Origin: an uncultured Candidatus Binatia bacterium
GTDB lineage: Bacteria > Desulfobacterota > Binatia > Bin18
Length of the DNA stretch: 64,000 bases
Direction: 5' to 3'
NCBI GenBank assembly: GCA_965214605.1
Contig: OZ243961.1
Span: 1,888,001-1,952,000 of the forward strand
In this document: positions 11,690-58,728 of the stretch, in pieces
Layout: each line of letters starts with the position of its first letter
How positions within the stretch are numbered: the first letter of the stretch is position 1
Program-made: the position numbers and the translations under genes
Notes under the pieces: model-generated
Told to the model about the DNA's origin: nothing
What the model saw: only the letters and a program-made list of their open reading frames with translations
Databases searched by the model: none

Positions 11690-12769
11690 CTAGTCTTTGA
11701 CAACTTCGACCCAACGTTCCGTGTGGGCGACGACCTCGCCAATCACGGCAGCGGCTGAAATACCGGCATTCTTGAGCGCTTGCACACAGGCGCCCGCCTC
11801 AGACTCAGGAACGGCCATGAGCAAGCCGCCCGAGGTTTGTGGGTCAAAGGCCACTTCATCAAGCTCGGCGGCAACCTGCGGGGATACGTCAACTTTATCG
11901 GCCAGATAGGTCCTGTTACGTTTGCAACCGCCGGTAGTATAGCCCTCGCCGGCCAGGCGCAGCGCGCCCGGCAAAATCGGGAAATGGGCGGCCCGCAACC
12001 GGAGGCTGACCCCACTCCCGTGCGCCATCTCATATCCGTGGCCCATCAGGCTAAACCCACTCACATCGGTACACGCGTGGACCGTATAGCGCGCCATGAC
12101 GTGGCTGGCGGTTCGGTTCAGGCTCAGCATCGAATCAACCACGGCCGCGTATTCCGTATCTTGGAGGTGGCGGCGTTTGAGAGCCGTTGTCACAATACCC
12201 GTGCCAAGCGGTTTGGTCAGGAGCAGCACATCGCCTACCTGAGCGCCGACGTTGCGAACCACGCGTTGGGGGTGAACCACTCCGGTCACGGCCAAACCGT
12301 ATTTAATCTCATCATCGGCAACCGAATGCCCCCCGACGAGCACCGCCCCAGCCTCGCGTACTTTTTCGGCCCCACCCTGGAGGATTTCGGCCAGCACCAT
12401 CTTGTCGATGCCATCCTGGGGAAAGCAGACGATATTCATCGCCGTTTTTGGTTCGCCACCCATGGCGTACACATCGCTGAGCGAGTTGGTGGCTGAAATA
12501 CGCCCATAGGTGTACGGATCATCCACCACTGGGGTAAAAAAATCGACCGTATTAATAATGGCCACGTCATCCCGTAACCGGAAAACACCGGCATCATCAG
12601 AGGTCTCAACACCAACCAACAGATCGGGATGCCGCTCAGTGGAGAGCTTGCTCAGGACGTGTTCGAGGTCCGCCGGACCCAATTTCCCTGCTCAACCGGC
12701 GGCTTTCACTTTTTCGGTCAAGCGTATTCTGCAACGCTGATCCTCAGCCTGCGGATGTGTTGTCGTCAT
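11690..12769 (-). CDS. selD: Selenide, water dikinase (selenoprotein; Sec26 at UGA 12692-12694)
   Basis: ATG 12769 reads MTTTHPQAEDQRCRIRLTEKVKAAG-UGA-AGKLGP in frame; DDAGV, TVDFFTP, SDVYAMGG, DPQTSGGLL. Confidence 0.95.
12667..12679 (-). promoter_or_regulatory. Candidate bacterial SECIS hairpin in selD
   Basis: GGTCC-GGC-GGACC stem-loop starting about 11-12 nt 3' of the UGA. Confidence 0.6.
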
Positions 12770-12804
12770 AGTGTCCTTTACGGTGTAGGTCTTGCCAGGT
12801 GTCT

Positions 12805-14724: not shown

Positions 14725-14727
14725 GAG

Positions 14728-14829
14728 GTTACTCCCGCGCAGGCGAGCGGTATTCGCAAAGAGGGCTTGCAGAAACACCCTGTCTTGAGTGACGCCCGCG
14801 CAGGCAAGGGGTATTCTGGCAAAAAGGAC
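14728..14829. repeat. Imperfect ~40-bp direct repeat in the selB leader
   Basis: gttactcccgcgcaggcgagcggtattcgcaaagagggc (14728-14766) versus gtgacgcccgcgcaggcaaggggtattctggcaaaaaggac (14789-14829). Confidence 0.75.
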
Positions 14830-15426
14830 AGGAAAAAGGAATCCCACCGTGGGGGCCCCCCGCACGGGTCAGTCTGAATTGTCTTTCTCTCCTGAGAGAG
14901 TCCCCTATTCTCCACAACCAAGAAGGATGGTCCCACCCTTGGGAATCTCCGTTAGCGGCAACGTCAATCTGTCTACGGGTGGGATTGTTCCCGGGACCGA
15001 CCTCCGGTCAGCTTAAACTGCCCCACAGGGAGGGGCCTTGCCCAAGGCTCACAGCCCGCTGGGGCAGCTGAGGCGCGGCCGACCGGACGAGTGAGCCCGG
15101 CATGACGAGCGGCAACGTCTCAATGGGGAGAAGGCAGAATTTCTCTTTGCGGCCAACCTGGCGAGATAATGGATGTTGTCGGCCGGGAAGGCGGCGACCT
15201 CATCGAAGCTGAGGTGTTCCTGTTGACTCCCCAATCCGGACATCGATAACTCTCCCCACTTCTCCTTAATGGAGCTGAAGGAGAGCTCTTCATACCCGGT
15301 GCTGCCGCCAGTCTGCATATCCGCGCGCTCATCACCTCCGATTTGGCCATCCGGACATTTTACTCGCTCTGGTGACGTGTTTGCGGGAGTTCTTCATTGT
15401 TCGTTGCCATTGGTGCTGCCTTCTGC

Positions 15427-17064
15427 TTAGCTGCCAGCGTCCGCGCGTTCAATCTTATCCACCAGAAAGGCCGCGACCTGGTTGAGGCTGATACGCTCCT
15501 GCTGGAGGGAGTCACGGTGACGCACGGTAACGGTCTGGTCGCTCAGGGTCTGGCCGTCAATGGTAAAGCAGTACGGGGTGCCAGCCTCGTCCATGCGCGC
15601 GTAGCGCTTACCAATGCTCTGTTTTGCGTCGGTCTGGACGGCATACTTGGGTCGCAGTTCGTGGTAGAGCTTATTGGCAATCTCAGGCATGTTTTCTTTA
15701 TTGACCAGCGGAAAGATGGCGGCCTTGATCGGGGCGAGCCGGGGGTGGAATTTCATGTACACCTTGCTGGGCCGCTGGTCATCAGGTGTGTAGGCTTCAC
15801 ACAGCACGGCTAAGGTGCCACGGTCAGCCCCGGCGCTGGGCTCAATGACATGCGGGAAATAGCGTTCGTTGCGGTCCGGGTCAAAGTAGCGCAGCTTATC
15901 GCCCTGTCCACAATGAACGGCGTGTTGGCGGAGATCGTAGTCGGCACGGTGAGAAACACCTTCTAGCTCGCCATAGCCGGGGGCAGTGAACGGGAAGCGA
16001 TATTCAACGTCGCTCGTTCCCGCTCCTTCTCTGGCGTAGTGGGCGAGTTCATCTGGGTCGTGCTCGCGCAGAGTCAGGTTCTCACCGGCCAGGCCAATCG
16101 CTTGCCACCAGCGAAACCGCGTATTGCGCCAATACTGGTACCATTCCTCAGCCTGCTGGGGGTGAATAAAGAACTCCAGTTCCATCTGCTCAAACTCGCG
16201 AGAACGAAACGTGAAGTTGCGCGGGGTGACCTCGTTGCGAAATGCCTTGCCGATCTGGGCAATACCAAACGGCACTTTCACCCGGTTGCTATCCAACACA
16301 TTCCAGAACTGGGTGAAAATGCCCTGTGCGGTCTCCGGCCGGAGGTAGGCGACTGCAGACGGGTCTTCGACCGCACCGGTTGTTGTCTTGAACATAAGAT
16401 TGAACGGTTTTGGATCGGTGATTTCCCCACCACAAAATGGACATGGGAGCAGTTCTGTGTCCGCCTGGTCGGTGGCCAGCACGTGGACAAGTTGTCTCAA
16501 ATCAACACGCAGCGGCTCGTCCGCTTCCCTGTCGGCGGCCAACCGAGAGAGCGTTGTCGGTGGGTTTCTGACCAGCGCTAGGTTCGGGGCAAGCTTGCGG
16601 GCTTCGGTGTTGGCCCAACGCCTCAGGCCTGTGACACTCGGCCCATCCGCACCCGCCAGTGCGGCTAGCGAGGCATACCAGGCGCTCTCCTCGATCATCT
16701 CCCAGACGTGGTCATAGCGCAGGAGTTTTTTGCAGTGCCGGCAGGTACTCATCAGATCGGCAAAACCATCCAGGTGTCCCGATGCTTCCCAGACCTTGGG
16801 GTTCATGATGACGGTCGCGTCAACCGGAACGACAGCGATCGGCTTGCCGTCAGGACCGGCGGCTGGGCAGCGGACCACGTCCTGCCACCAGGCTTCCTTG
16901 AGGTTGCGTTTCAGCTCTGCACCGAGCGGACCGTAGTCCCAGAAACCATTGATGCCACCGTAGAGTTCGGACGACTGAAAAATGAAGCCGCGCCGTCTAC
17001 ACAGGGCAACGATGAAGTCCATGGATTTAGCTGCTGAGGCGGTCCGGGCGGTCGATTCATGCAT
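15427..17064 (-). CDS. glyQS: Glycine--tRNA ligase (alpha2 type)
   Basis: YLRPETAQGIF, FRNEVTPRNFTFRSREFEQME, VIEPSAG, SIGKRYARMDEAGTP. Confidence 0.93.
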   Translation of the reverse strand: MHESTARTASAAKSMDFIVALCRRRGFIFQSSELYGGINGFWDYGPLGAELKRNLKEAWWQDVVRCPAAGPDGKPIAVVPVDATVIMNPKVWEASGHLDGFADLMSTCRHCKKLLRYDHVWEMIEESAWYASLAALAGADGPSVTGLRRWANTEARKLAPNLALVRNPPTTLSRLAADREADEPLRVDLRQLVHVLATDQADTELLPCPFCGGEITDPKPFNLMFKTTTGAVEDPSAVAYLRPETAQGIFTQFWNVLDSNRVKVPFGIAQIGKAFRNEVTPRNFTFRSREFEQMELEFFIHPQQAEEWYQYWRNTRFRWWQAIGLAGENLTLREHDPDELAHYAREGAGTSDVEYRFPFTAPGYGELEGVSHRADYDLRQHAVHCGQGDKLRYFDPDRNERYFPHVIEPSAGADRGTLAVLCEAYTPDDQRPSKVYMKFHPRLAPIKAAIFPLVNKENMPEIANKLYHELRPKYAVQTDAKQSIGKRYARMDEAGTPYCFTIDGQTLSDQTVTVRHRDSLQQERISLNQVAAFLVDKIERADAGS

Positions 17065-17138
17065 AACAAGAACTCATCTTTCAGTGACGGGAATCAGAAA
17101 AACACGATAGGGGAAGGCCCAGAGTGGGCGCTGTAAGG

Positions 17139-17585
17139 CTAGTGTGCAGGCTTATTGCCGTGAAACTGAGAGAGCCGATCAATCACAAAGGCGCGCGAAT
17201 CGCTATAGTACAGGCCGCGCATTTTCAGCGCCCGTTTATTCGGTTCTTCGGCCAGCAATTCTTCCAGCAGATAGTCCGGGCCCCGGACATACATGCTTGG
17301 GGTTCGCAGGCGGAGATCGGCAAGAAAGCGCTCGCGGAGGAACCTGCGGCCGGAACTATGCAGACCGTGGAGGGCAAACAGGATTTTTTGTTTTTTCACC
17401 TCAAGGGTCAGGACATCGGGACCGGGCCAACTCTGAACCATACCGGTGAACTCGATCAGCTCGGTCCCTCTGGTGCTCATCTGAGCAACGAGCGGTGGGG
17501 CGAGCCACAACGGCAGGACTAGGCCACACAGCAAGGAGAGCGAGTTCTGAGCGGACAAGAGCAGCGTCAAGCGTTGTAATTTCAT
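17139..17585 (-). CDS. Hypothetical exported protein
   Basis: Hydrophobic N-terminal signal-like segment; co-oriented with neighbours and fills the gap between them. Confidence 0.65.
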   Translation of the reverse strand: MKLQRLTLLLSAQNSLSLLCGLVLPLWLAPPLVAQMSTRGTELIEFTGMVQSWPGPDVLTLEVKKQKILFALHGLHSSGRRFLRERFLADLRLRTPSMYVRGPDYLLEELLAEEPNKRALKMRGLYYSDSRAFVIDRLSQFHGNKPAH

Positions 17586-17599
17586 CGTCTGATGTGGCT

Positions 17600-18817
17600 C
17601 TAGGTCAACACATCGCTGGCCCGTAAGGCCATGACCTCCTCAGCCGAGTATCCCAGGAGATTCTGTAGAACCGCATCGGTGTCTTGGCCCAGACACGGGG
17701 CTGACCGGCGGACCTGACAGGGCGTGTCGGAAAAGACCCAGGGCATACCGGCATGGCGACGCACACCAACCTCAGGGTGCTGATGCTCGGCAAAAAAGCC
17801 ACGCTCTTGTAGGTGCTGATCTTGGGCGAGATCTTTGTTGGTGAGGGCCGGAAAAGCCGCTACTCCGGCGGCCTGCAGGGTGTGGGTCACTTGTGTCTCC
17901 GTCCGCACTCGGGTCCACTCACTCATGACCGCTTCAAGCGCCTCCTCATTTTTTTTGCGATTGGCCAAGCTGGCAAAACGCGCATCGGCCGCCAGCTCTG
18001 GCCGACCCATACCCCGACACAGGCGCTGCCATTCGTCCTCGTTGGCCACGACAATACTCACCCAGCGGTCTTGCCCCTGGCACGGAAACAGCCCGTGCGG
18101 GGCCATGTACGCGTCTTGATTTCCGGTCCGGGGCGGGGGTTCTCCGTGCATCTGCTGGGCTATCAGCCCCTCGCCCAACAGGGTCACCGACGTCTCCCAC
18201 TGGGACAGATCAATATACTGCCCCTCTCCCGTTCGGGCCCGGTGCATGAGCGCGGCCAGAACGGCAAACGCCCCGTGCAAACCACCGTTCGGATCTCCGT
18301 ACGAGAAGCCCACATGCATGGGTGGAAATCCAGGAAACCCCGTCACCGATGACAAGCCACTCATCGGCACCTGGGCCGGGCCGTACGACACATACGCACT
18401 CTCCGGTCCGGTCGTCCCATAGCCCGACATGGAGATCATAATAATATCAGACTTTAACTGCTTGAGGACCTCATAGCCGAGGCCCATCTTGTTCATCACT
18501 CCGCCAGCAAAATTCTCGGCCACAATATCACTGGCCGCAACCAACTTCTTGGCGATCGCTATCCCCTCAGGCTTCTTTAAATTCAAACACACAGAGGCCT
18601 TGCCCTGATTATACTGGTTGTAATACCCGCTACGATTAGGGCCCGGCTCGCCATCGGCAAAGGGCGGAATACGACGGGTCACACACAGCCGACTCTCGGT
18701 CTCAATGCGAATGACCTCAGCGCCCAGATGAGCCAACTGCAGGGTCGCAAACGGGCCGGCCCAGACCCAGGTGAAGTCGGCAACGCGAATGCCGGATAGG
18801 GGAAGTTGATTGTCCAT
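17600..18817 (-). CDS. Family III CoA-transferase (CaiB/BbsF-like)
   Basis: DFTWVWAGP, LGAEVIRIE, GYGTTGP, YGD catalytic Asp, APCLGQD. Confidence 0.9.
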   Translation of the reverse strand: MDNQLPLSGIRVADFTWVWAGPFATLQLAHLGAEVIRIETESRLCVTRRIPPFADGEPGPNRSGYYNQYNQGKASVCLNLKKPEGIAIAKKLVAASDIVAENFAGGVMNKMGLGYEVLKQLKSDIIMISMSGYGTTGPESAYVSYGPAQVPMSGLSSVTGFPGFPPMHVGFSYGDPNGGLHGAFAVLAALMHRARTGEGQYIDLSQWETSVTLLGEGLIAQQMHGEPPPRTGNQDAYMAPHGLFPCQGQDRWVSIVVANEDEWQRLCRGMGRPELAADARFASLANRKKNEEALEAVMSEWTRVRTETQVTHTLQAAGVAAFPALTNKDLAQDQHLQERGFFAEHQHPEVGVRRHAGMPWVFSDTPCQVRRSAPCLGQDTDAVLQNLLGYSAEEVMALRASDVLT

Positions 18818-49455: not shown

Positions 49456-50670
49456 CTACCAGGCCACACCCTTCTCCTTGAGGGTGACGATTTCCTCCAT
49501 CGAATAGCCACACACCTGCTGGAGAATCTCAGCGGTGTGTTGACTGAAGTCTGGCGCGCCTTTTCGGAGCAGTGGAGTCTTTTCTAGACGAAAAGGCGCC
49601 GAGACCGTCTTGAGCCCATTGTCCAACTCCATCAGGTAGTCGTTCGCCACCACTTGCGGATCATCGGGCAGATCACTAACCTTGTTGACGACCGAGAACC
49701 AGAAACCTTTTTCTCGAAAAACCTTCTCCCAGTAGTCGCGCGGTTGCGTGGCAAATGCCCCTTCAATGCGGGTGATCAACTCCCTGCGATTTTCGGCCCG
49801 TTTTTCATCGCTCCTGAAATGCGGGTCGTGCTCAAGATCGGCCAAGCCCAACACCTGACAAAAATCCGACCAGAAACGCGACGCAACAAACAGCCCACAT
49901 GCAATCCAGCGCCCGTCGGCGCAGCGGTACAGATTCATCAGCGGGTTCGCCACGTCGTGACGATCATACGGAGCAAAATCCTCTCCCACGTTCGTATATT
50001 GGGCTACGTTGTAGTACTGGAGCCACATCATGGTGCTCAGCTGCGAGGCCCAGACTGACTGACTCGTACCGGTTCGCTCCCGGGCCAGTAGGGCAGCTAT
50101 CACCCCGAACCCGAGCATCGTTCCGGACAGGATGTCACTCAGCGCTCCAGTCGGATACACGGGCGCCCCGTCCGCATCCGGTGTGTTGAACATAAACCCG
50201 GAGCGCGCCATGCCAACCGTGTCCTGACACGGGTCTTCGGCGTGCGGACCAAGCGGTCCAAAACCTGTCGCGTGCGAGTAGATCAGTTCGGGATTGATCT
50301 TGAGCAACGTCTCACGGTCAGCGCAAAATTCACGCAGCGCACTAGGGTGGAGGTTGGAGATAAAGACGTCAGACTTTTTAATCAAACGGCGGAACGCCTC
50401 CTGGCCCTCGGCTTGGCGCAGGTCGATACTGATCGCCTTCTTATTACGATTGGTAATCTCGAACATCAGGTTTTTTCCGTCAGGTAAGAACTGGGGCCTC
50501 CCAAACAGGGACCGCACCCCACGAGAAAAATCGCCCTGCCCCGGCTTCTCGACCTTAATGACCTCGGCCCCCAGGTCGGCCAGCATCATGGCACCCAAAG
50601 GCCCTTGGGCCCAGATCGTCAGGTCCACGACTCGAATGCCTTCAAGCGGCATGCGTCCATTGCGCTCCAT
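49456..50670 (-). CDS. Family III CoA-transferase
   Basis: QGP..LADLGAEVIKVE, NRNKK, GFGPLGP, LSD catalytic Asp. Confidence 0.9.
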   Translation of the reverse strand: MERNGRMPLEGIRVVDLTIWAQGPLGAMMLADLGAEVIKVEKPGQGDFSRGVRSLFGRPQFLPDGKNLMFEITNRNKKAISIDLRQAEGQEAFRRLIKKSDVFISNLHPSALREFCADRETLLKINPELIYSHATGFGPLGPHAEDPCQDTVGMARSGFMFNTPDADGAPVYPTGALSDILSGTMLGFGVIAALLARERTGTSQSVWASQLSTMMWLQYYNVAQYTNVGEDFAPYDRHDVANPLMNLYRCADGRWIACGLFVASRFWSDFCQVLGLADLEHDPHFRSDEKRAENRRELITRIEGAFATQPRDYWEKVFREKGFWFSVVNKVSDLPDDPQVVANDYLMELDNGLKTVSAPFRLEKTPLLRKGAPDFSQHTAEILQQVCGYSMEEIVTLKEKGVAW

Positions 50671-50685: not shown

Positions 50686-51462
50686 TTATTGGTCTCTCAC
50701 AGCGTTGACGTGTTTGTGTTCGACACGGATTTCTCTAGCCTTAGCTTCCAGCTCAAGCGCCTCAGCCTGGCGATCTGTTCGGCGCAGTAGTGGCGCGTAC
50801 TTCTCGATGAGCAGGGCGACCGCAGGATGCTTTGCACCGAGTTTTTGTTGTCGGATTTCCAAGGCGCGCTGAAAAATCGGAGCCGCCTCTTCGTCCCTGC
50901 CCTGAGCAACCGCAACCTCTGCTTGGCCGCACAGGGTCGTTGCCACCGAGTGATGGTCGGGCCCAAAAAACCGGGTGCGAATACTGAGCGAGCGCGTGAA
51001 CAGAGCGGACGCCTCATCGTAGCGCGTCTGCTCCATATATACCGCGGCCAGATTATTGAGACAGTTGGTCACCCGCCAATGGTCCGGGCCAACAATGGCC
51101 TCGGCAATGGTCAAGACTTTTTGTAAAAACACCTCGGCTTCGTCCAGCTTGCCGAGCTCGCGGTATAGCGAGGCCAGATTATTCAGGCTCTGGGCGACAA
51201 AAGGATGCTCCGAGCCGTATTTTTCCCGCCGGATATCCAGCGCCCGCCGATAGTGCTGTTCGGCCTCTTGGAGTTTGCCCTGGTTATGGCACAGATTGGC
51301 CAAGTTATTGAGCACCATCGCCACCCGCGTGTCTTTCGGACCAAACCTCTCCACTATTTCCAAGGCCTCACGAAAATGCTGTTCGGCCCGGTCATACACC
51401 CCCTGTTGATACAGACGAAACCCGTCCTCATTGATCTTTTGCCACCGCGTCTCTGTACTCAT
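50686..51462 (-). CDS. Tetratricopeptide repeat protein
   Basis: Repeated LNNLA..Y...G...EA......AL.I ~42-aa TPR units. Confidence 0.9.
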   Translation of the reverse strand: MSTETRWQKINEDGFRLYQQGVYDRAEQHFREALEIVERFGPKDTRVAMVLNNLANLCHNQGKLQEAEQHYRRALDIRREKYGSEHPFVAQSLNNLASLYRELGKLDEAEVFLQKVLTIAEAIVGPDHWRVTNCLNNLAAVYMEQTRYDEASALFTRSLSIRTRFFGPDHHSVATTLCGQAEVAVAQGRDEEAAPIFQRALEIRQQKLGAKHPAVALLIEKYAPLLRRTDRQAEALELEAKAREIRVEHKHVNAVRDQ

Positions 51463-51518
51463 ATTCCCCCCTACCAGCCCTGTAATCGAGAGTCGAGCAG
51501 GTCGGTTTGAAAGCCCTC

Positions 51519-52388
51519 TCACCTCTCTTGAGGCTGACTTTCCATAAGCCACTTTTCCATGAGATCTTTGAGTTCTTCAACAGAAAAGACGCCAAGCTCT
51601 TGCCAGGCTGAGCGGACGCCAATGAGCCGCAGAATCTTTTTCAAGGTGCTCGTTTTGAAGACCGGATTCTCTGGGTCCGCTATCCGTTCGGACAAGGCCC
51701 ATATCAGGGCAGTACGGACTTCCCCGTCACCCAAAACGGAATTTCTTGAGACAAGGAGGTTGATTAACTCTTCCCAATACTGCTGCGAATATCCCAAAAC
51801 CTTGGCGACGGATGTCAATTCCGCTCCTGTGTTATCACAGACCTCATTCGCCAGATATCGACGCCACCACGCCCGCGCGAACGGGCAATTTACATAAACG
51901 CTTCTGTTGCCTCGGGCCTCGGGCAATCCGCTCATACGCCTCAACGCCGTGCGGACAGTCCCATCTATTTCCTTGTCACTGCCGTCTTGCAAAGCCTGAC
52001 CAATCCGCGCAAGACCGCTCGACGTACTTCCACTGCCGGCGGCAAGAAAACTCGACTGGATTCTGCCCTCCTTGATATGGCGTAGGGTCATACATCCCCA
52101 AAATCCGACGCGACAGGCAATCGCTGGAGGGATGGACTTCCACAACTCAAAAATCTGTCGCTCGGTACTCTTTGGCGGCTCCTTGAATTCGGCCTCGGTC
52201 AGATTCTCCTCAAGGGTTGGCAGGCCGTCACCGGGCACTATCTCGACCTGTTCTCTCATCCACGCCGAATAACGATCACTCGAGCACAGGACATTCAGAA
52301 ACTCTTTTTGCCTGTCGGACCCTTTTGTTCTGAGAAGGTCTTTACGCAGCGCGGTATAGGAGGCGTCATCAAACTGCTCGTAGTTCAA
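51519..52388 (-). CDS. Hypothetical helical protein (DUF6339-like by recollection)
   Basis: FWGCMTLRH and FARAWWRRY motifs; TTG start abuts the upstream stop. Confidence 0.7.
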   Translation of the reverse strand: MNYEQFDDASYTALRKDLLRTKGSDRQKEFLNVLCSSDRYSAWMREQVEIVPGDGLPTLEENLTEAEFKEPPKSTERQIFELWKSIPPAIACRVGFWGCMTLRHIKEGRIQSSFLAAGSGSTSSGLARIGQALQDGSDKEIDGTVRTALRRMSGLPEARGNRSVYVNCPFARAWWRRYLANEVCDNTGAELTSVAKVLGYSQQYWEELINLLVSRNSVLGDGEVRTALIWALSERIADPENPVFKTSTLKKILRLIGVRSAWQELGVFSVEELKDLMEKWLMESQPQER

Positions 52389-52389
52389 G

Positions 52390-53223
52390 CTACCCCTCCG
52401 GTTCTGTCTGAGAAGGTTTGTGGGGATAGCGTTTAGTTGCCACCAAATCAGCAGAAAAATTATCGGCGTCCCAAAGGGGCAGATCGTACCCTTCCAAATC
52501 AGCTGCCAGTGCTTTCAGATTACTGTACTGCTCCCATTCTCTACCACCGTCCTCACTCTGGCCGCTGTAGTCCTTTCTGAGAATCTCAAAGCAGCGACTC
52601 ACAATATGGGTCAGAATGCTACCGCGATGATTTTTGTGCTCTCCAGCGTTTTGGAGAAATTGGCATAAATCCGAAGCGGCAGAGACCTTAAAATAAAATC
52701 CATCATCCGTACACGGAGCCACCTCAAAGCTGCCCGCTGGGAGTTGTTCATTTCGATTGATTTGAAGCAATTCGTGGACAGATGAAGACGGTCTCAAATA
52801 GCCCCGTAATGCCAACCGCGCACCTTTGGGAAACGTGATCTCCCGCCCCTGCCAGACTTCCGCCGCCCCACTGTCGCTTCCCAGGGTACGAGAAATTTCA
52901 GCAACGGAAACAATGAGGGGACGCAGCATGGGCGGCTCACCCACTACGGTCATGTCCAACTTAATGTGCTGACGCTCCTCATCGGAGAGGTGCAACTTTC
53001 GGTGTCCGGTAAGAGGGACTGCAATCAGGCATCCATACCTGGCCTGACCTTGGCGGATCAGGCGGTCCAGAAAAGGGACGTTGCGAACCTTGTGACGGAT
53101 CGTCACGGAAGTGTCGTCGGTCTGTAGTACATCAACCGCATACTCTCCCTCTGGATAAGAGAGATTACCATCTACCAAAACCGGATACGGAAGCGCTCTG
53201 AGAACTTCGCCGGCCCGTGCCAC
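52390..53223 (-). CDS. Hypothetical protein of the GHKL cassette
   Basis: GAGGAGG SD, LPYPVL N-terminus; 12 bp after the ATPase stop. Confidence 0.8.
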   Translation of the reverse strand: MARAGEVLRALPYPVLVDGNLSYPEGEYAVDVLQTDDTSVTIRHKVRNVPFLDRLIRQGQARYGCLIAVPLTGHRKLHLSDEERQHIKLDMTVVGEPPMLRPLIVSVAEISRTLGSDSGAAEVWQGREITFPKGARLALRGYLRPSSSVHELLQINRNEQLPAGSFEVAPCTDDGFYFKVSAASDLCQFLQNAGEHKNHRGSILTHIVSRCFEILRKDYSGQSEDGGREWEQYSNLKALAADLEGYDLPLWDADNFSADLVATKRYPHKPSQTEPEG

Positions 53224-53235
53224 CGCTGAGCCTCC

Positions 53236-55257
53236 TCATTTTGCAGAATCGCCGGCACGACGAATAATCTCCGTCTTCAGCACGATCGGACTATCGGCGG
53301 AAACGTGAACGCTTTCGGGGAGCTCATAATCAATTTCTATGTTCAGGGGATTATCACGATCAAGGGCACCAAGTCGGACTCCGAGCACACGATTTTTCTC
53401 ATCGCGGATCAGATTTTCACCGGACACCGCTTCACCATCGACTTTGACAGTCTTCAGTCTCACAAATTCTTCACCTCCTACGTCATCGCATGTTTCATCC
53501 AGGCCTTCATCTAACACGAATCGGATTTCGCTGCCGACGCAGCGTTCTTCAGACCTGATGTCGAATCGGTAGGACCGTGCGCCGGTAGGGACGGAAAGTC
53601 CGCGTATCCGAAGGGCATTACCCGTCCGGCGAAAGCTGCCACGTCCGCTCCTGCGCCGACGGCTACCCGTGCCATTTCCTTTTCCTTGGTTTTCAAATTC
53701 GTCAGGATCTAAACCCTCTTCTGTTTGACTCTCGCCTTCGGTCGGTGCTCTGCTCCTCCGTCTTGGCACTTCGCGGAACTTGCCCACTAGAGAAGAACGC
53801 TGTCCACCCGGGGCAATGCCATGTTTACTGATCGACAGGACATCGTGGACTTTGAATTGTTCATTACTCGTAGGGGGAATAATCTCGTGGACTTTAGAGG
53901 CTATTGCTTCCAGAGCTTTGTACACCTGTTTACGTTCGTCTGTCCGAAGTTTTTTCAACGACACTTCATTATGCAGTGGCCCCTCAGCTTTACGCACGAG
54001 GCGATGAATGCTTCCAGCATCTTCGGCTTCAGCCTTGAGCAGTACAACACAATGAAATGGCTTTAAACTGGCAAAATTGGCTTCTCGAAGCTTCCCCGGC
54101 AGCTTATTCGTGATCCACATCCCATTTCGGCATAGCTCAATGCTTGTCTTGCCATCATCTAATTTCCGCAGTTTCAAGGCAACATTACCAACCTCTGTTT
54201 CAACGGAAACGTCATCTCCTTTCTCTACCGTATCGAGCGCAGCAGCAGCCCGAGACCCGGATAAAAACTTGCTATAAGCCCGCCTCTGGTCGCGGTATTC
54301 AGCCAATGTAGCCCTAATAGTAGTATGATCGAGGACCTGAGTTTCGCCTTCTTCCTTTATAAACTCAACTCGAAGTTCTTTCTGTGCAAATGCAGCGAAG
54401 AAATTGCACGCTGCAGCCTTCGATATCATATCCCACAGAGACTTCGATTCACGAAAATCGTTGAATCCCGGAACAGCCACAACGGTGCCTGACTGCCACC
54501 GGTCAGCGATCCACTTCAGCTTGCTCATGATATACTCAGGGATCTCGCTGTTCTGTAGAAAAGTATATGGATCGTACAGGTCTTGGTTGAGGCGCTTGAC
54601 AAAATAGCCGTCCTTACTTTTGCTTACACGTCTGCCGTCCTTACTTTTGCTTACACGTCTGCCGTCCTTGCTTTGGTGGGACGCAAGGATAGCGTGGCCT
54701 GCTGCGATCATCTGCTTCTGTTGAGTCAGACCACCATATAAGACATATCGCAGGTCTGAAGCAGGGATAACAACAAAATGGCCGTTCCCGACAGCACCGG
54801 CACTGTTCTCGCTCTTAACGCTCACCCCATCTGCTAAGATTCCTTTCATCCTAGCCTTATCAAGGCCGATACCATTGTCGAGAATGTACAGGGTCCTACA
54901 CGATTCCGACTTCAGACAAGTCTCAATAGCCTCCACAATGTCCTTTGCTTGGTCAGCCAAGGCGCCATTACGCAACCTCTTTTGAGCCTGCTTCGCACAA
55001 TCAAACGCCTCTCGATACTGCTTGATACCTGGTACCTCATCCAGAGCATGCTTTTTCAGTTCAAAGCGAATACAGGCATCCCGCCCAGCTTCACGTGCCG
55101 CGTCCAATGAATTTTGCATGATCTCCCGAACAATGGCCTCCGGATTAAGGTCACCAAAGGCAGCGATGCCGGCTGCGGTAAAACCCGCGATCTCTCCCCC
55201 CACCTCGAAATGGAGATCAGGGCTTCCCGACCGCCGCTGCTTGTTTTTCTTATTCAT
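53236..55257 (-). CDS. GHKL (Hsp90/MORC-like) ATPase domain protein
   Basis: Bergerat motifs REIMQNSLDA, LDNGIGL, GAVGNG, SGTVV; charged linker; beta-rich C-terminus. Confidence 0.82.
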   Translation of the reverse strand: MNKKNKQRRSGSPDLHFEVGGEIAGFTAAGIAAFGDLNPEAIVREIMQNSLDAAREAGRDACIRFELKKHALDEVPGIKQYREAFDCAKQAQKRLRNGALADQAKDIVEAIETCLKSESCRTLYILDNGIGLDKARMKGILADGVSVKSENSAGAVGNGHFVVIPASDLRYVLYGGLTQQKQMIAAGHAILASHQSKDGRRVSKSKDGRRVSKSKDGYFVKRLNQDLYDPYTFLQNSEIPEYIMSKLKWIADRWQSGTVVAVPGFNDFRESKSLWDMISKAAACNFFAAFAQKELRVEFIKEEGETQVLDHTTIRATLAEYRDQRRAYSKFLSGSRAAAALDTVEKGDDVSVETEVGNVALKLRKLDDGKTSIELCRNGMWITNKLPGKLREANFASLKPFHCVVLLKAEAEDAGSIHRLVRKAEGPLHNEVSLKKLRTDERKQVYKALEAIASKVHEIIPPTSNEQFKVHDVLSISKHGIAPGGQRSSLVGKFREVPRRRSRAPTEGESQTEEGLDPDEFENQGKGNGTGSRRRRSGRGSFRRTGNALRIRGLSVPTGARSYRFDIRSEERCVGSEIRFVLDEGLDETCDDVGGEEFVRLKTVKVDGEAVSGENLIRDEKNRVLGVRLGALDRDNPLNIEIDYELPESVHVSADSPIVLKTEIIRRAGDSAK
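54607..54669. repeat. Perfect 27-bp in-frame tandem repeat (2.3 copies)
   Basis: gccgtccttacttttgcttacacgtct x2 plus gccgtcctt; encodes SKDGRRVSK repeats. Confidence 0.95.
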
Positions 55258-55299
55258 TGCTCCGTCTCTCTGATAGATAGCCAATCGTAGATGTCATCA

Positions 55300-55530
55300 A
55301 TCTCCTCCCTGCTGTGACGTAGCGCTCAATCAACGCCTGCAGCACCTCTCCGTGTTGACGTAACGGCTTCCGGCCTTTCCTTGTGGCGGTCAGGCGTATT
55401 CGGCCCCCGCGACCGTGACTCTCGACCCACACGAACAGCAGCCCTCCGGCCCACACAACTATCTGCCCAAGGTCGGCCCCCAAAGCAGCGAGCGTTGGAC
55501 AGCTACAGTGGCCATCTCAAAATCGGTCAT
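55300..55530 (-). pseudogene. Possible winged-helix (MarR/PadR-like) regulator remnant
   Basis: PTLGR* followed in another frame by GLL..GRGGRIRLTATRKGRKPL. Confidence 0.3.
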
Positions 55531-55603
55531 GGTTGTGACCTGAACGCGAGTCGCTAGGCGAAATAATTCCCACCCAAGAGCAAGCAACTGAGGTGCTAGG
55601 CGT

Positions 55604-56920
55604 TTAGTCTGTACAATCGCAGGGCAAAACACTGTCTTCGTAGGGAGAGAGCGCTGTGTCATCATCAGGTAACTCCGCCAGCCGTTTATAGGAAAAACCG
55701 CTTTGTGTCCCAAAAAACCCGATGAAATTATTGGCGACAGTAGCACGAATAGCGCGCCCTTCCGCCTCAAGATCACGGCCGTATCGCTGTTCAATCCCGA
55801 CCCACCAAGCGAGATCGCAGGGCGTATTTTTGAGTCCTACTGTCATGTCCTTCAGGGATACACGCGCTTTGCGCAACCCTCGGATACCTTTGAGGAAACA
55901 GTAGGTACAGTTGGACAGCCCGTTTTCAACGTCGAGCGCTAAGTCCCACGCCTGCTTTTTCCAGAACGTCTCCACATCCTCCTGAGTGATACCCATATCG
56001 CTCAGGGGCAGGTAGACGTGTTCCCCTTCATACCCGGCGGCGTGGACCTCACTGGTGTTGCGTTGTCGCACTCGGATCACACGCCGCATTTCATCGCGCC
56101 GGAGTCCCACGAAAGCAAGATATTCGACGCCCTCAGAGCCGAAATACACCTGGTGACTGAGACTTTCTTTCGTAAGGTAAGGATTTGTGATGGGGCACGT
56201 GGCGGCTGAATAGTCCGCAAACCGCTGTGCTGACCGAAACACTGGCCGTGACCGAACAAACCGCTTTTTCTCCAGAAAAATGTCCCGGGGAACCTCCCCC
56301 TTATGGCGTAGGTGATGTTCGTACATTTCGTCGTCGTCAAGACGGCTGTTCTTCCCAAAATGGCCAAGGCGTTCGGTGTGCGGCTTACAGGTCAACCAAT
56401 CCTTCAGAAATGCTCTGGTCGTCTCGAGCTTGAGGCGCGAGGTGCAGGTACGTCTGAATTGGTTCGGCGCATACCCCGTCCAGGACAGTAGTTCCTCAAA
56501 GGCTTCGCCACGCCAACAGTATCCATCTGTATTTGTCTCAGAGCGGGGAACGGGCTGAACGAGGCGGTATGAGGGCAGGCGTACCCACTCCCCGTTTCTC
56601 GCATCCTCATAGGTCTGAAATTCGACGAGAAAAAACGGGAGACCATAGCGATTTTCGACAAGCTCTTTACAACGACTCACAAATTCATAGGTGGCGGGAT
56701 GCTCGGCAGACGTGTTGTTGAACACCACTACATCACCCCGTTCGGGCTGTAAGAGACCGGCTTCGAGCAGGACAAAGAGCATCATGCCGCTCGTCCTGCC
56801 GCCTGAAAACTTGACAACGTGGGGCAGATCTTCATGGCCGGACAGGTCGTACCAGAATAGCTGATCCGCGCCGTGCTTCCTTCTCAGTTTCGGGACCGCT
56901 CTTATCCCTCGCCCAGTCAT
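55604..56920 (-). CDS. PAPS-reductase-like (PP-loop) Fe-S protein
   Basis: VKFSGGRTSG, NTSAEH, PNQFRRTCTSRLK, GLRRDE, SNCTYCFLKG, terminal PCDCTD. Confidence 0.82.
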   Translation of the reverse strand: MTGRGIRAVPKLRRKHGADQLFWYDLSGHEDLPHVVKFSGGRTSGMMLFVLLEAGLLQPERGDVVVFNNTSAEHPATYEFVSRCKELVENRYGLPFFLVEFQTYEDARNGEWVRLPSYRLVQPVPRSETNTDGYCWRGEAFEELLSWTGYAPNQFRRTCTSRLKLETTRAFLKDWLTCKPHTERLGHFGKNSRLDDDEMYEHHLRHKGEVPRDIFLEKKRFVRSRPVFRSAQRFADYSAATCPITNPYLTKESLSHQVYFGSEGVEYLAFVGLRRDEMRRVIRVRQRNTSEVHAAGYEGEHVYLPLSDMGITQEDVETFWKKQAWDLALDVENGLSNCTYCFLKGIRGLRKARVSLKDMTVGLKNTPCDLAWWVGIEQRYGRDLEAEGRAIRATVANNFIGFFGTQSGFSYKRLAELPDDDTALSPYEDSVLPCDCTD

Positions 56921-56979
56921 CGTGTCCCCCGGTATGCCGTACTCTGCGCTGTGTTCTTTAGTTGGAAAGAGAGACCGAT

Positions 56980-56995
56980 GGGGCAGACGTGCCCC
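56980..56995 (-). terminator. Hairpin downstream of the deacylase gene
   Basis: ggggca / tgcccc stem with a pyrimidine-rich tail on the minus strand. Confidence 0.4.
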
Positions 56996-57012
56996 GCCGG
57001 TGAGAGAGGGCT

Positions 57013-58728
57013 TTAGGCATGGGCTAAGGGACCGCGCAACAACTGGCCGGGCAGCGCCCCGGTATGTTCGTTATTATGCAGCACGACCTGACCGTTGACT
57101 ACAGTGGCTAGGAAACCGGCTGCTTTTTGCTTGAGCCGGCGCGCACCGGCCGGCAGGTCATAGGTCAGCTCCGGCATCATCGGGGCGACCGTGTCAGGAT
57201 TAAAGACCACCACATCGGCCGTCATCCCCTCACGCAATAGGCCACGGCTGCTAAGCCCCCACTGTGAGGCCGGCACAAAGCTCAGCATCCGCACCGCCTC
57301 TTCAAGCGTCACCTGCTGTTTCTCACGGACCCAATAGCTGAGCAGATGGGTCTGCAACGAGGAATCCATGATCTGGGATACATGTGCCCCAGAATCCGAG
57401 AAGGTCACAACCGAACGCGGGTGTTTGATCATCTGGAGAGCGTGGTCCTGATCCTCGTTAGCTAGGGGTTGCAGGTAGAACTGCTTGAGGCCCTTGTCAA
57501 GAGCCAGATCGATGAATACATCAACCGGGTCTTTGCCCTGCTCCGCAGCGATCTCGGCGATCGAGCGGTGGGGCGGATTGGGCCGGTCCATGACGAACAG
57601 CCAGTCATAGTCTGCAGCTCTTGCCTCGGGGCCGGTCCCCCGACCGCCGTCGGGATCCTGATTGTGGGCTTCTTCGACGAGCTTACGGCGAAAGTCAGGA
57701 TGGCGAAGCGCAGCGTCTTTTTCTTCCAGCGAGCCCATTTTTTTCAACCGTCGCCAGGTCGGCAGACGGTCAAATGGCGTATTGGTCTCAAACGACAAGA
57801 CCGCGTTCAGCGACCGACTATGGACCTGAAGAAACATCCGTCCCCCGGCCGCTGCGGTCTCATCGGCCAACTCATAATAGGACTGCCAGCAGTCCGGGGC
57901 TCGCCGCATGGTGAACATGCCGTAGGTCACCGGCACGCCAGTCTCAACGGCCAAGGCTTTAAGACGGCTCTGATAGTCCTGGATGCGTTCAGGATCACGG
58001 CCGGTGTCTTCCCCGGCGATCTCAAAAATGCCGGCCCCCAGCTCGCCCATCACCCCAACTAGTTGGCGGACTTCCTCCCAGTTCGCCAAGCGGCTGGCCA
58101 CCGGCTGGCGCTGAGGAGTCTGATGGTTGCGCGTCCGTGAGGTGGTAAAACCCATTGCGCCGGCCTGAATGGCCTCACGTACTTGCTGCTTCATACGCCC
58201 CAGGTCGTCCTCGGTCGCCTCATCGGTAAACGCCCGCTCGCCCATGATATAGGTCCGCAGTGCCGAATGACCCATATAGGCCCCATAGTTAATCCCCTTG
58301 GGCAAACGCTCAACGCTATCCAGATATTCAGGGAAGGTCTCCCAGGTCCAGTTGATGCCAGCGTTCATAGCCTCGGGGGCGATGTCTTCGGCGCGCTCCA
58401 GATTGCGCATCACCATGTCTTTTTCGCTCTCCTTGCACGGCGCGAGCGAAAAGCCACAGTTGCCCATAATCACGCTGGTAATGCCGTGCCAGCATGAGCA
58501 GGTGCCCAGCGGGTCCCAGGACACCTGGGCGTCCATGTGGGTATGGCCGTCAATAAAGCCGGGAGCGACAATATGGCCCTCGGCGTCAATCCGCCCCTTG
58601 GCGCTCTCTCCCCGAATCCGGCCGATCGAGGCAATTTTGCCGTCAAGGATGCCAACGTCAGCCCGAAAGCGGGGCAGGCCCGAGCCGTCTACCACCGTTC
58701 CATTATGAATAATCAGATCGTACTGCAT
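57013..58728 (-). CDS. N-acyl-D-amino-acid deacylase family amidohydrolase
   Basis: GTVVDGSG, APGFIDGHTH, GNCG, SDSGAH, DLPAGARRL. Confidence 0.9.
   Translation of the reverse strand: MQYDLIIHNGTVVDGSGLPRFRADVGILDGKIASIGRIRGESAKGRIDAEGHIVAPGFIDGHTHMDAQVSWDPLGTCSCWHGITSVIMGNCGFSLAPCKESEKDMVMRNLERAEDIAPEAMNAGINWTWETFPEYLDSVERLPKGINYGAYMGHSALRTYIMGERAFTDEATEDDLGRMKQQVREAIQAGAMGFTTSRTRNHQTPQRQPVASRLANWEEVRQLVGVMGELGAGIFEIAGEDTGRDPERIQDYQSRLKALAVETGVPVTYGMFTMRRAPDCWQSYYELADETAAAGGRMFLQVHSRSLNAVLSFETNTPFDRLPTWRRLKKMGSLEEKDAALRHPDFRRKLVEEAHNQDPDGGRGTGPEARAADYDWLFVMDRPNPPHRSIAEIAAEQGKDPVDVFIDLALDKGLKQFYLQPLANEDQDHALQMIKHPRSVVTFSDSGAHVSQIMDSSLQTHLLSYWVREKQQVTLEEAVRMLSFVPASQWGLSSRGLLREGMTADVVVFNPDTVAPMMPELTYDLPAGARRLKQKAAGFLATVVNGQVVLHNNEHTGALPGQLLRGPLAHA

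Follow-up and report, generated by a model that had tools for sequence, protein, structure and literature searches.

Described systems for phosphorothioate (PT) modification of DNA combine a PAPS-reductase-like enzyme and a cysteine desulfurase with an ATPase of varying class, namely the ABC ATPase DndD, the Orc/Cdc6-type AAA+ protein SspC, or BrxC, as given in the available parts of two sources (PMC10853773; PMC12914056). According to the available text of the second source, DndA and SspA can be replaced in trans by IscS or SufS, and a desulfurase encoded elsewhere suffices for Dnd and for BREX type 4, whose PT-making proteins are an ATPase and one with a PAPS-reductase domain (PMC12914056). 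The same text describes TdpABC, in which TdpC alone suffices for PT synthesis through an adenylated DNA intermediate, and reports that PT was undetectable in a Bacteroides isolate whose PAPS-reductase gene adjoins an ATPase (PMC12914056). PDC-M33, a gene triad, is one of the 145 PADLOC candidates, which are defined as stand-alone defence candidates embedded in other systems.

Here we describe a four-gene cassette in a 64,000-nucleotide stretch of a contig from an uncultured Candidatus Binatia bacterium (the window). All coordinates are positions within the window, and the cassette genes are numbered G1-G4 in order of transcription:

55604..56920, minus strand: G1, 438-aa ORF, SspD-like PP-loop ATP-pyrophosphatase-type protein, putative sulfur-inserting subunit
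55285..55603, minus strand: G1-G2 spacer, 319 bp
53236..55284, minus strand: G2, 682-aa ORF, GHKL-type ATPase (PDC-M33A), putative ATP-driven DNA-clamping/scanning subunit
52390..53223, minus strand: G3, 277-aa ORF, PDC-M33B-like
51519..52388, minus strand: G4, 289-aa ORF, DUF6339-like all-helical protein (PDC-M33C), predicted docking subunit for G1
50686-51552, minus strand (co-oriented with the cassette): TPR protein (TPR_12, E = 2e-63), between G4 and the catabolic genes

An earlier sequence-only reading had marked 51519-56920 as four minus-strand genes, the last three tightly coupled, in a block that looked AT-rich. The ORF list agrees exactly: all four ORFs are intact, and the gaps are 12 bp between G2 and G3 and 1 bp between G3 and G4. 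GC content is 0.48-0.56 over 51500-57000 versus 0.57-0.60 in most flanking 500-bp bins, a modest but genuine dip. The cassette had also been said to interrupt a run of catabolic genes; the flanks do encode an amidohydrolase, a CoA-transferase and an amidase (translations read by eye), but the TPR gene intervenes as a fifth co-oriented gene. Taking ATG 55257 as the start of G2, which is probably correct and fits the public gene call (P0271, 673 aa), widens the G1-G2 gap from 319 bp to ∼346 bp. The spacer shows no promoter or terminator signal exceeding chance, and tblastn with desulfurase and DUF262 proteins detected no remnants of such genes there. A spacer piece (55388-55533) resembles a stretch located after G4 in a syntenic sister genome (L194, 13646-13799) at 75% identity.

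The PP-loop and cysteine motifs read in the first gene are family features. G1 carries FSGGRTSG, of which SGGRTS at residues 39-44 is invariant in the family (S39, G40, G41 and S44 in 24 members), as are C84, C159, C338, C341, C434 and C436. The public gene call (P0001, 393 aa) begins after the PP-loop, and for that reason the 438-aa ORF is the better gene model. Pfam PAPS_reduct matched G1 under its gathering score (E = 0.004), and the PADLOC profiles for SspD, BrxP and DndC matched at E = 7.8e-8, 2.3e-5 and 7.4e-4, respectively, the SspD HMM covering residues 34-89 only (30 bits). Comparison with an SspD family alignment by hhalign gave 97% probability (E = 1.1e-10, 174 columns) and paired the PP-loop, RxCT..LKL (C159 with C96), VGLRxDE and CxxC (C338/C341 with C181/C184). 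Similarity to DndC was marginal (hhalign 48% probability, N-terminus only), with 15.4 bits for the DndC equivalog TIGR03183 against a cut-off of 290.4, and no solved structure among PDB chains matched G1 by sequence. Judged by these alignments, G1 is a divergent, remote SspD homologue that differs by its length (438 aa versus ∼280), two large insertions and a C-terminal domain absent from SspD.

G2 contains all the GHKL boxes that had been noted: REIMQNSLD (ExxxNxxD), LDNGIG (DxGxG) and GAVGNG (GxxGxG), with N58, D61, D136, G138, G140, G163, G166 and G168 invariant among 45 members. These Bergerat-fold motifs place G2 in the GHKL ATPase superfamily. There was no Pfam match at E ≤ 0.1; the weak profile matches were Hsp90 (E = 0.0048), MORC3 (E = 0.37, 40 residues) and MutL (0.95) among PDB sequences, and sacsin, TopoVI-B and HSP90 in NCBIfam (E = 0.006-0.07). 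The "MORC-like" label given earlier is weak, the MORC3 match being insignificant. Positions R386, G388, M389, E434, H438, D592, E593 and D596 are conserved outside the GHKL domain, and a search of G2 for nuclease domains, PD-(D/E)xK included, found none.

The adjacent, co-oriented genes G2 and G3 match PDC-M33A and PDC-M33B, and G4, third in the same order, tentatively matches PDC-M33C, an assignment made by HMM scores and gene order: E = 1.5e-35 and 121 bits for G2 (residues 29-486, aligned with positions 12-426 of the 627-position profile), E = 4.9e-9 and 34 bits for G3 (residues 9-139 only), and E = 8.9e-4 and 16.8 bits over a short stretch of G4. DUF6339 also matched G4, under the Pfam cut-off (E = 0.004, 17.4 bits versus 23.2). 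Plasmid triads of PDC-M33 have the same sizes and order as G2-G4, and their third gene is annotated as DUF6339. The G3 model (pLDDT 88.8) combines a beta-sandwich at the N-terminus with an alpha/beta-plus-helical part at the C-terminus; G3 belongs to no Pfam family, Foldseek with the model returned nothing at E ≤ 1e-3, and the VIA matches were of the generic FN3/Ig-like sort (highest Z = 8.9, residues 12-145). Its invariant residues include no acidic cluster, and profiles, Foldseek and VIA found no catalytic motif in G3, as had been stated. The G4 model (pLDDT 93) is all-helical and without neighbours in the PDB (best Foldseek E = 1.3; best VIA Z = 6.4). The structure and profile comparisons and the PADLOC check that the sequence-only reading proposed therefore lead to SspD for G1, to PDC-M33 for the triad, and to no significant Foldseek match for G3 and G4. 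Its description of the system as unnamed has to be divided: the triad matches PDC-M33A/B/C, while literature searches found no name for the four- or five-gene combination, and PDC-M33 as defined, unlike the cassette, has no PAPS-like or desulfurase gene.

Several known systems resemble the cassette. With SspABCD the cassette shares an SspD-like G1 and, in relatives, an SspA-like desulfurase and frequently a DUF262 protein, the domain type of SspE; it also shares the logic of a desulfurase, a PP-loop enzyme, an ATPase and a DNA-binding partner, as set out in the available part of the source (PMC10853773). It differs by having neither SspB (DUF4007, triple wHTH) nor SspC (Orc/Cdc6-type AAA+, DUF6079), its ATPase being of the GHKL class. 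The SspB and SspC HMMs had no match in G2-G4 at E ≤ 0.1, no other Ssp HMM matched them, and hhalign against the SspB of the host gave probabilities of 0.05% for G3 and 0.4% for G4. Relatives resemble DndABCDE in a DndA-type desulfurase, a PAPS-reductase-superfamily enzyme with conserved cysteines and adjoining PbeA/PbeC-like modules, whereas HMMs for the DndD ABC ATPase, DndE and DndB found no match in the cassette. The window's cassette differs from both systems in having no linked cysteine desulfurase (SspA/DndA). The likeness to BREX type 4 lies in the gene pair described above and the weak BrxP match; G1 carries no fused DUF4007, the ATPase belongs to another class, and BrxC/PglY, PglZ and BrxL are absent (no HMM match for BrxC, PglZ or BrxL). 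TdpABC is likened by description only: the ATP-dependent step that we propose below for G1 has a precedent in its adenylated intermediate. Among the PDB chains searched, the profiles of G1 and G2 matched none named Tdp. MORC/paraMORC and defence GHKL ATPases share the GHKL N-terminal domain and the defence or modification context, another example being the V. cholerae Shedu protein VcSduA (PMC12137116), but their partner proteins are unlike those of G2.

We next examined the recurrence of the genes in 80 G1-anchored loci from many bacterial groups. The PAPS-like gene had been expected to accompany the triad elsewhere, and it does: all four genes are present in 73 loci, with order and strand conserved in 72. 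Five loci break off at the end of a contig or flank, and two have G1 and a desulfurase without the triad, one of these genomes containing no G2 homologue at all. Searching from the ATPase side, as had also been suggested, gave the same picture, G1 adjoining G2 in each of the eight genomes with G2 among 300 genomes of one class; one locus (L193) has the permuted order G2-G3-G4-G1-desulfurase-DUF262. Identity to the window copy co-varies between G1 and G2, G3 or G4 across loci (Spearman 0.62-0.71). We concluded that G1 and the triad are linked far above chance.

In 66 of the 80 loci an SspA/DndA-type cysteine desulfurase (class-V aminotransferase) directly follows G1, scoring 6e-79 for Aminotran_5, 1.4e-139 for SspA and 9.8e-139 for DndA. 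The position of the G1-G2 spacer is occupied in most relatives by the desulfurase gene, a DUF262 gene, or both. GmrSD/BrxU-like DUF262 or PbeA/PbeC-like modules lie in or beside the cassette in 42/80 loci: DUF262/GmrSD_N proteins (HEC-05/BrxU-like) in 27 and PbeA/PbeC-like modules in 15 distinct ones. The absence of DndA and SspB/C/E read from the DNA holds for the window's copy, but desulfurase and DUF262 genes are present in relatives, and the host genome has its own SspA-SspBCD. Canonical DndC or SspD is present in 26 of the 50 cassette genomes searched and in the window's own genome, so the neighbouring Pbe- and DUF262-type modules could serve those systems instead; neither protein was found in the other 24, nor in 6 of the 12 genomes searched in which the cassette adjoins a Pbe-like module.

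Complex prediction for G1 with G4 gave a median score of 0.74 (best of three controls, 0.00), with at least 78% of contacts shared between runs and a partner pLDDT of at least 82. Among 80 solved complexes, 58 reach the mark that this pair reached, as do 2 of 110 mismatched pairs; both counts are only rough because we used our own alignments. The predicted contacts are residues 35, 61-75, 120-130 and 239 of G4 and residues 106-112, 186-189, 193, 205 and 253-256 of G1, the latter in stretches unaligned with SspD and including the invariant D106, G110, G186 and H187. The docking motifs are kept in triad-linked G1s and not in members of the G1 family fused to C5 cytosine methyltransferases, and plasmid DUF6339 proteins appear to have neither the loop nor the segment contacted by G1, in an alignment of only 12-15% identity. 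The prediction supports binding of G1 to the DUF6339 subunit G4 via segments absent from SspD.

The SspD homology, the desulfurase in 66/80 loci, the GmrSD/BrxU- and Pbe-like neighbours and the predicted docking support the earlier suggestion that the PP-loop enzyme is a putative modifying arm. With slightly better than even confidence, we propose a PT-type DNA modification in which a GHKL-ATPase complex replaces DndD/E or SspB/C and the desulfurase is supplied, here, in trans. G1 would be the catalytic subunit, whose conserved cysteines could bind an Fe-S cluster or carry a persulfide; it would activate the DNA backbone with ATP and insert sulfur mobilised by the cysteine desulfurase. G1 would dock on G4, and G4, G3 and G2 would form an ATP-driven DNA-binding and scanning complex filling the role of DndD/DndE in Dnd and SspC/SspB in Ssp. 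The sulfur mark may be read by interchangeable restriction modules, either GmrSD/BrxU/SspE-like DUF262 or PbeA/PbeC-like, near about half of the relatives' cassettes. What the analysis shows directly are the homologies, the linkage of the genes and the predicted interface between G1 and G4. The PT chemistry is put forward from homology and neighbourhood only, and we likewise infer the DNA substrate, the role of the triad and the part in defence.

The same genes could divide the work differently. The triad occurs without G1 in 16 plasmid records of Lactococcus, Ligilactobacillus and Paenarthrobacter and can therefore function independently; one of two plasmid loci inspected has it beside a DNA methyltransferase, the setting named in the sequence-only reading, and there it is apparently embedded in a type I restriction-modification (R-M) system. 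In type I and type III R-M the modifier docks onto an ATPase complex. G1 and the desulfurase might accordingly mark self DNA while the GHKL triad acts as a restriction or abortive effector in one complex, which would suit the solitary triads in plasmid defence islands, the definition of PDC-M33 as a candidate defence system embedded in others and the predicted docking; E434, H438, D592, E593 and D596 of G2 could be catalytic. Yet profiles and structure comparisons recognised no nuclease fold or motif in G2, G3 or G4 (a weak result for the C-terminal half of G2), separate restriction-type modules already occur in the 42 loci, and in one relative (L192, a single case) an IS4/5 transposase splits G1 while DUF262, G2, G3 and G4 are intact, a state that speaks against the triad being lethal when the G1 mark is missing. 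We regard this division as rather unlikely.

A second question is whether the window's copy works at all. By the ORF list and tblastn, no desulfurase, DUF262 or Pbe-like gene lies in or next to it, and without a reader module the cassette here would be a solitary modification module under the PT proposal. It could instead be an inactive or decaying remnant that has lost both genes, whatever the family does elsewhere: G2 is broken into five frame pieces in the sister genome, G1 is IS-split in the relative just mentioned, and the cassette diverges faster than its flanks (76-77% versus 83-85% nucleotide identity). We consider decay improbable, a shade more so than the divided roles above, given that the four ORFs are intact with every family-invariant residue kept, that six further loci (L001, L003, L004, L008, L014 and L042) have the same four-gene form, and that misassembly could account for the broken reading frame of G2 in the sister genome. 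The host genome encodes three IscS/NifS-like desulfurases and, ∼120 kb from the cassette, a canonical SspA-SspBCD cluster whose true SspD scores 3.3e-138; a genome-wide search found no DndC. Supply in trans is plausible, in which case the donor in this host would be one of its three IscS/SspA-like enzymes, and Dnd and BREX type 4 function with a desulfurase encoded elsewhere, according to the available part of the source (PMC12914056).

Some G1-family members form a single protein with a complete C5 cytosine DNA methyltransferase, an enzyme type that flips bases; in P0176 a DNA_methylase domain (3.9e-70) precedes a full G1 domain of 37% identity. PP-loop enzymes generally adenylate carbonyl oxygens of bases, and TtcA and TtuA are PP-loop/Fe-S enzymes that thiolate tRNA. 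Sulfur or adenylation chemistry by G1 on a DNA base (thiolation), on RNA or on a small molecule, with no backbone phosphorothioate, would accommodate these fusions and the insertions and C-terminal domain absent from SspD, but it is very unlikely, since the nearest detectable relatives of G1 are the PT enzymes SspD, BrxP and DndC, the neighbourhood of SspA/DndA-like desulfurase and DUF262/Pbe-like modules is classically that of PT systems, and the fusions indicate DNA instead of RNA as the substrate.

Against the PT reading we counted the remote kinship with SspD, the marginal DndC similarity and the lack of a solved structure matched to G1; the plasmid triads without G1 and the two loci with G1 and desulfurase without the triad; the co-resident canonical DndC or SspD in 26/50 genomes and in the host; the window's copy without desulfurase and reader, and the broken G2 of the sister genome; and the PT-negative Bacteroides case in the available text of the source (PMC12914056). 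The recurrence of the genes as one unit in many unrelated bacteria suggests a DNA-marking immune system of a kind not yet described.

The four genes at 51519-56920, which the sequence-only reading had described as co-oriented on the minus strand, appear in the ORF listing at these coordinates, each with an intact reading frame. Together with the gene directly after G4 they are:

55604-56920, minus strand, G1, SspD-like PP-loop protein, 438 aa
53236-55284, minus strand, G2, GHKL ATPase, 682 aa
52390-53223, minus strand, G3, PDC-M33B-like protein, 277 aa
51519-52388, minus strand, G4, DUF6339-like protein, 289 aa
50686-51552, minus strand, TPR protein (TPR_12, E 2e-63), directly after G4

The tight coupling proposed for the last three genes was confirmed (gaps of 12 bp for G2-G3 and 1 bp for G3-G4), and the G1-G2 spacer measures 319 bp. 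The AT-rich look of the block was also borne out: GC is 0.48-0.56 over the cassette (G1 plus the G2-G3-G4 triad) compared to 0.57-0.60 in most flanking bins. The public call for G1 (P0001, 393 aa) starts at an internal Met downstream of the PP-loop; we prefer the 438-aa ORF because homologues in the family alignment conserve residues 24-45, within the 45 residues that the public call omits and that the alignment shows as conserved. The true start of G2 is probably the ATG at 55257, in agreement with the 673-aa public call. The TPR ORF as listed overlaps the end of G4 by 34 bp; the protein has an 86% identical copy in the syntenic sister genome and a 52%-identical paralogue elsewhere in the window's own genome. 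We rejected it as a member of the system, since a homologue was found in 0/80 related loci and the gene is kept only in the sister genome.

Several local features were recorded along the way. Within a poorly conserved region of G2, an in-frame 27-nt tandem repeat at 54607-54674 (two identical copies followed by the beginning of another) encodes SKDGRRVSK SKDGRRVSK SKDG. A spacer piece of ∼150 bp (55388-55533), unique in the window's genome and with a possible 23-codon ORF, shows 75% identity to positions 13646-13799 of the sister locus L194, where it lies after G4. The flanking genes at 49456-50670 (CoA-transferase-like) and 57013-58728 (amidohydrolase-like) belong to very large paralogous families; one related genome has 24 matches to the former and 10 to the latter. 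The flanks of the cassette hold no notable direct or inverted repeats, and promoter and terminator scans there gave results at chance level.

Next, we examined whether the PAPS-reductase-like gene recurs with the triad. The G1 alignment was scanned against one genome per species (185,579 species), which gave 176 relatives; the best 80 loci were examined by tblastn with the window's proteins. The proposed linkage held: all four genes were present in 73 of these best 80 G1 loci, and in 72 of the 73 they lie on one strand in the order G1-G2-G3-G4. The remaining complete locus (L016) has two triads with mixed best matches; both are complete and stand in tandem after a single G1 (11302-18295), and a canonical DndC is found in that genome just beyond the locus end. 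Five of the 80 loci are truncated past G2 or G3, where the contig or flank stops, and two (L011 and L063) have G1 without the triad. In both of these G1 is still followed by a cysteine desulfurase gene, beyond which lie either the gene of an HNH protein or unrelated genes; no homologue of G2 is present anywhere in the L063 genome. Identities of G1 to the window protein co-vary with those of each triad gene (Spearman 0.62-0.71), and therefore the four genes are inherited together. In a sample anchored on G2, 8/300 genomes of one class carry this gene, and G1 adjoins it in all eight (five already known, three new). At L193, one of the new loci, the order is permuted to G2-G3-G4-G1-desulfurase-DUF262. 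That the genes stay linked through such a reshuffling is strong evidence that they form a functional unit.

The distribution of the cassette is sporadic. In the window's phylum, a PDC-M33A profile match was found in 4/401 sampled genomes, and a true PDC-M33A only in the window's own genome and perhaps one fragment; the matches in genomes G163 and G129 were rejected as remote GHKL proteins that gave no tblastn match with any protein of the cassette. The titles of the records behind the 80 loci include Binatia, Entotheonella, Gamma- and Alphaproteobacteria, Spirochaetia, Nitrospinota, Acidobacteriota orders, Dehalococcoidia, Latescibacterota, and Longimicrobiales, among others, names that we take to cover at least ten phyla. 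Despite these distant groups, G1 is 49-69% identical across the 80 loci. Several titles are names of sponge-associated candidate taxa, presumably sponge symbionts. Genes for phosphorothioation (PT) are reported as enriched in sponge metagenomes (PMC5099237), and the wide spread of the cassette fits horizontal transfer in such a habitat. Searches of viral contigs gave two distant G1 relatives (27% identity) and no G2 relatives, and thus no sign of a phage-borne cassette in searches with these two proteins.

The G1 family is large and well conserved (1369 proteins at E<=0.001; 1142 representatives in a second search). Single-profile matches of G1 are weak: PAPS_reduct at E 0.004 and, in PADLOC, SspD at 7.8e-8, BrxP at 2.3e-5, and DndC at 7.4e-4. 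In a 24-member alignment, the PP-loop residues S39, G40, G41, and S44 and six cysteines (C84, C159, C338, C341, C434, and C436) are invariant. We then compared G1 with SspD and DndC profiles built from genomes that also carry the cassette. The hhalign comparison to SspD gave 97% probability (E 1.1e-10, 174 columns) and aligned the PP-loop, RxCT..LKL (C159 with C96), VGLRxDE, and CxxC (C338/C341 with C181/C184), whereas the profile comparison to DndC reached only 48% probability, at the N-terminus. It is on the difference between these two results that we class G1, by its sequence, as a divergent SspD-like enzyme. Unlike SspD, G1 contains two large insertions, at about residues 97-140 and 178-262, and a C-terminal domain of its own that ends in an invariant CDCTD. 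In the ESM Atlas, G1 retrieved its own cluster first and then PAPS_reduct clusters, mostly viral. Comparison of the G1-G4 profiles with solved structures by sequence gave nothing meaningful; a 14-3-3 match of G1 was rejected, as it aligns to a His-tag. The full G1 domain is also found in nature fused to complete C5 DNA methyltransferases (P0176, P0169, and P0160). A metagenome scan with the fusion P0176 returned 80 loci, all 80 with ordinary C5 methyltransferases and none with G1 or the triad.

The companions of the cassette resemble those of PT systems. A desulfurase gene of roughly 385 aa lies directly after G1 in 66/80 loci, and its product is a class-V aminotransferase (Aminotran_5, 6e-79) matching SspA (1.4e-139) and DndA (9.8e-139). 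The gene for a DUF262/GmrSD_N protein of roughly 560 aa lies in the G1-G2 interval at 14 loci, follows G4 at 12, and is upstream at 1; the protein resembles HEC-05, which is given as BrxU in bioRxiv 2024.01.29.577857. In 15 other loci a Pbe-like module is found in or beside the cassette (PbeA down to E 5.6e-151, PbeC also strong). In PMC9239217 and bioRxiv 2024.01.29.577857, the restriction or sensing partners of PT systems are SspE (GmrSD-like) or PbeABCD; with 27 DUF262 and 15 Pbe-like cases, 42/80 loci carry a module of such a type. The bare four-gene form is found in the window and six loci (L001, L003, L004, L008, L014, and L042). Just before the PbeA-like gene there is regularly a gene for an unannotated protein of 545-793 aa (L025 1654-4035, L018 11380-13017, and L163 11901-14051), beside G1 cassettes and beside a canonical Ssp cluster alike, with no PADLOC match or a weak MzaA one only.

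Cassette genomes are themselves rich in canonical PT genes. We searched 50 of them, chosen from the 80 mainly as long assemblies, and found SspD in 12 and DndC in 20 (at least one in 26, neither in 24). Six of the 12 searched genomes with a Pbe-like module beside the cassette have neither DndC nor SspD. In the window's own genome, a genome-wide search found no DndC; a complete, canonical SspA, SspB, SspC, and SspD cluster (locus L163, C1:2063468-2074302, outside the window) lies ∼120 kb from the cassette. There SspA is divergent from the rest, which runs SspB, SspC (1132 aa), SspD, an uncharacterized protein of 716 aa, and a helicase resembling PbeA (E 1.3e-151). The genome also has three IscS/NifS-like desulfurases. 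Because of this background of canonical genes, the Pbe/DUF262 neighborhood supports a PT link without proving it.

The triad proteins match a PADLOC candidate system in order, G2 to PDC-M33A (E 1.5e-35), G3 to PDC-M33B (4.9e-9), and G4, over a short stretch, to PDC-M33C (8.9e-4). The PDC systems are 145 untested candidates, selected because their genes are found within BREX, DISARM, or type I R-M systems (bioRxiv 2024.01.29.577857). The GHKL boxes of G2 can be read directly from its sequence and do not vary among 45 homologues; its profile resembles Hsp90, MORC3, and MutL only weakly, and the C-terminal half retrieved only unnamed clusters in the ESM Atlas. AlphaFold models of G3 (pLDDT 88.8) and G4 (93.0) are confident predictions that are uninformative on function. 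The G3 N-domain is modeled as a generic beta-sandwich with FN3/Ig-like matches only (VIA Z up to 8.9), and Foldseek gave no match for the G3 model; fold searches with the all-helical G4 model found no neighbor above noise. These poor fold-search results are no evidence of new folds.

To predict contacts, residues 20-438 of G1 were modeled together with G3 and G4, each given as an alignment. The prediction supports binding (median score 0.74; best of three controls 0.00), with runs agreeing in at least 78% of contacts and partner pLDDT of at least 82. The mark was reached by 58/80 solved complexes and 2/110 mismatched pairs, a rough guide here since our own alignments were used. All confident contacts are between G1 (106-112, 186-189, 193, 205, and 253-256) and G4 (35, 61-75, 120-130, and 239). 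The G1 stretches are those that hhalign left unaligned with SspD, and they include the invariant D106, G110, G186, and H187; on the G4 side, the loop LTExEFKxPP has invariant E65 and E76 and a nearly invariant P71. Every triad-linked G1 displayed, the permuted L193 included, retains the motifs QTYEDARxGxW and GH(F/Y)G, which are absent from G1 domains in the C5 methyltransferase fusions. In plasmid triads lacking G1, the DUF6339 proteins have neither the loop nor the 120-130 segment, in an alignment of only 12-15% identity. The model thus supports a predicted docking of G1 on G4.

Those plasmid triads came from a tblastn search with G2, which found 16 plasmid records (Lactococcus, Ligilactobacillus, and Paenarthrobacter). 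The same search with G1 found four other records and 0 of the 16. The two plasmid triads inspected are three-gene units with an annotated DUF6339 protein, in defense islands, and therefore the triad has a life apart from G1. One directly follows a type I S subunit and N6 methylase and the other is near AlwI and AbiG genes; the association of such triads with DNA methyltransferases put forward in the sequence-only reading was thus seen at one of the two loci.

In the sister genome, locus L194 has the cassette at the same chromosomal place, with 83-85% nucleotide identity in the flanks and 76-77% in the cassette. It follows that the cassette predates the separation of the two genomes and has been evolving faster than the DNA around it. 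G2 of L194 falls into five frame pieces, perhaps by decay or through an assembly error; the window copy has four whole ORFs with every family-invariant residue kept. No empty insertion site was found: G163, a genome of the same family, was uninformative, as it has just the amidohydrolase gene in common and lacks synteny, and the sister genome is already occupied.

In the published plan of PT systems, as set out in two accounts, a desulfurase and a PAPS-reductase-like enzyme work with an ATPase of varying class (the ABC ATPase DndD, the Orc/Cdc6 AAA+ protein SspC, or BrxC) and a DNA-binding partner, often with a DUF262 protein too (DndB, SspE) (PMC10853773; PMC12914056). One of them argues that the ATPase and DNA-binder core is a scanning apparatus able to recruit PT enzymes or cytosine methylases (PMC10853773). 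Four established systems (dnd, ssp, tdp, and BREX type 4) are counted in PMC12914056. In three of these, Dnd, Ssp, and BREX type 4, the PAPS-reductase-like enzyme is paired with a P-loop ATPase (PMC12914056), whereas the cassette ATPase G2 is of the GHKL type. The cassette matches the general plan, bringing in a third class of ATPase. On balance we lean, by a small measure, toward a PT-type system in which G1, docked on G4, would insert sulfur into DNA, G2-G3-G4 would form an ATP-driven targeting complex, and DUF262 or Pbe-like modules, where present, would read the mark. The chemistry must be measured, because one PAPS-reductase and ATPase pair with no detectable PT is reported in the same source (PMC12914056).

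The main rival, in which the triad itself is the restriction arm of an R-M-like complex, is rather unlikely in our estimate. At L192, G1 is split at 13175-14035 by an IS4/5 transposase (two ORFs; DUF4096 6.7e-25 and DDE_Tnp_1 1.7e-18), yet DUF262, G2, G3, and G4 are intact; this single case weighs against lethality of the triad in the absence of G1. We give a smaller chance to a triad that is a general ATP-driven DNA scanner, its DUF6339 protein recruiting interchangeable modifiers, with a G1 mark in this clade that differs from the classical Dnd/Ssp phosphorothioate, such as base thiolation or another adenylate-dependent adduct. Such a mark is hinted at by the extra domains of G1 and its fusions to base-flipping C5 methyltransferases, and if real it would amount to a novel type of DNA modification, targeted by a new route. 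That G1 acts on a different substrate or with different chemistry, also hinted at by the natural methyltransferase fusions, seems very improbable.

GHKL ATPases linked to DNA sulfur modification were not found in the literature searched, nor were the terms PDC-M33 or DUF6339 in papers (supplementary tables lay outside that search), and none of the matches listed combined phosphorothioate, GHKL, and PAPS reductase in one paper. If confirmed, the PT-type reading of the cassette would add a GHKL-ATPase-based architecture to PT synthesis and give a first functional handle on PDC-M33 and on DUF6339 as a predicted docking subunit. New PT enzymes could offer new sequence specificities for site-specific sulfur labeling of DNA.
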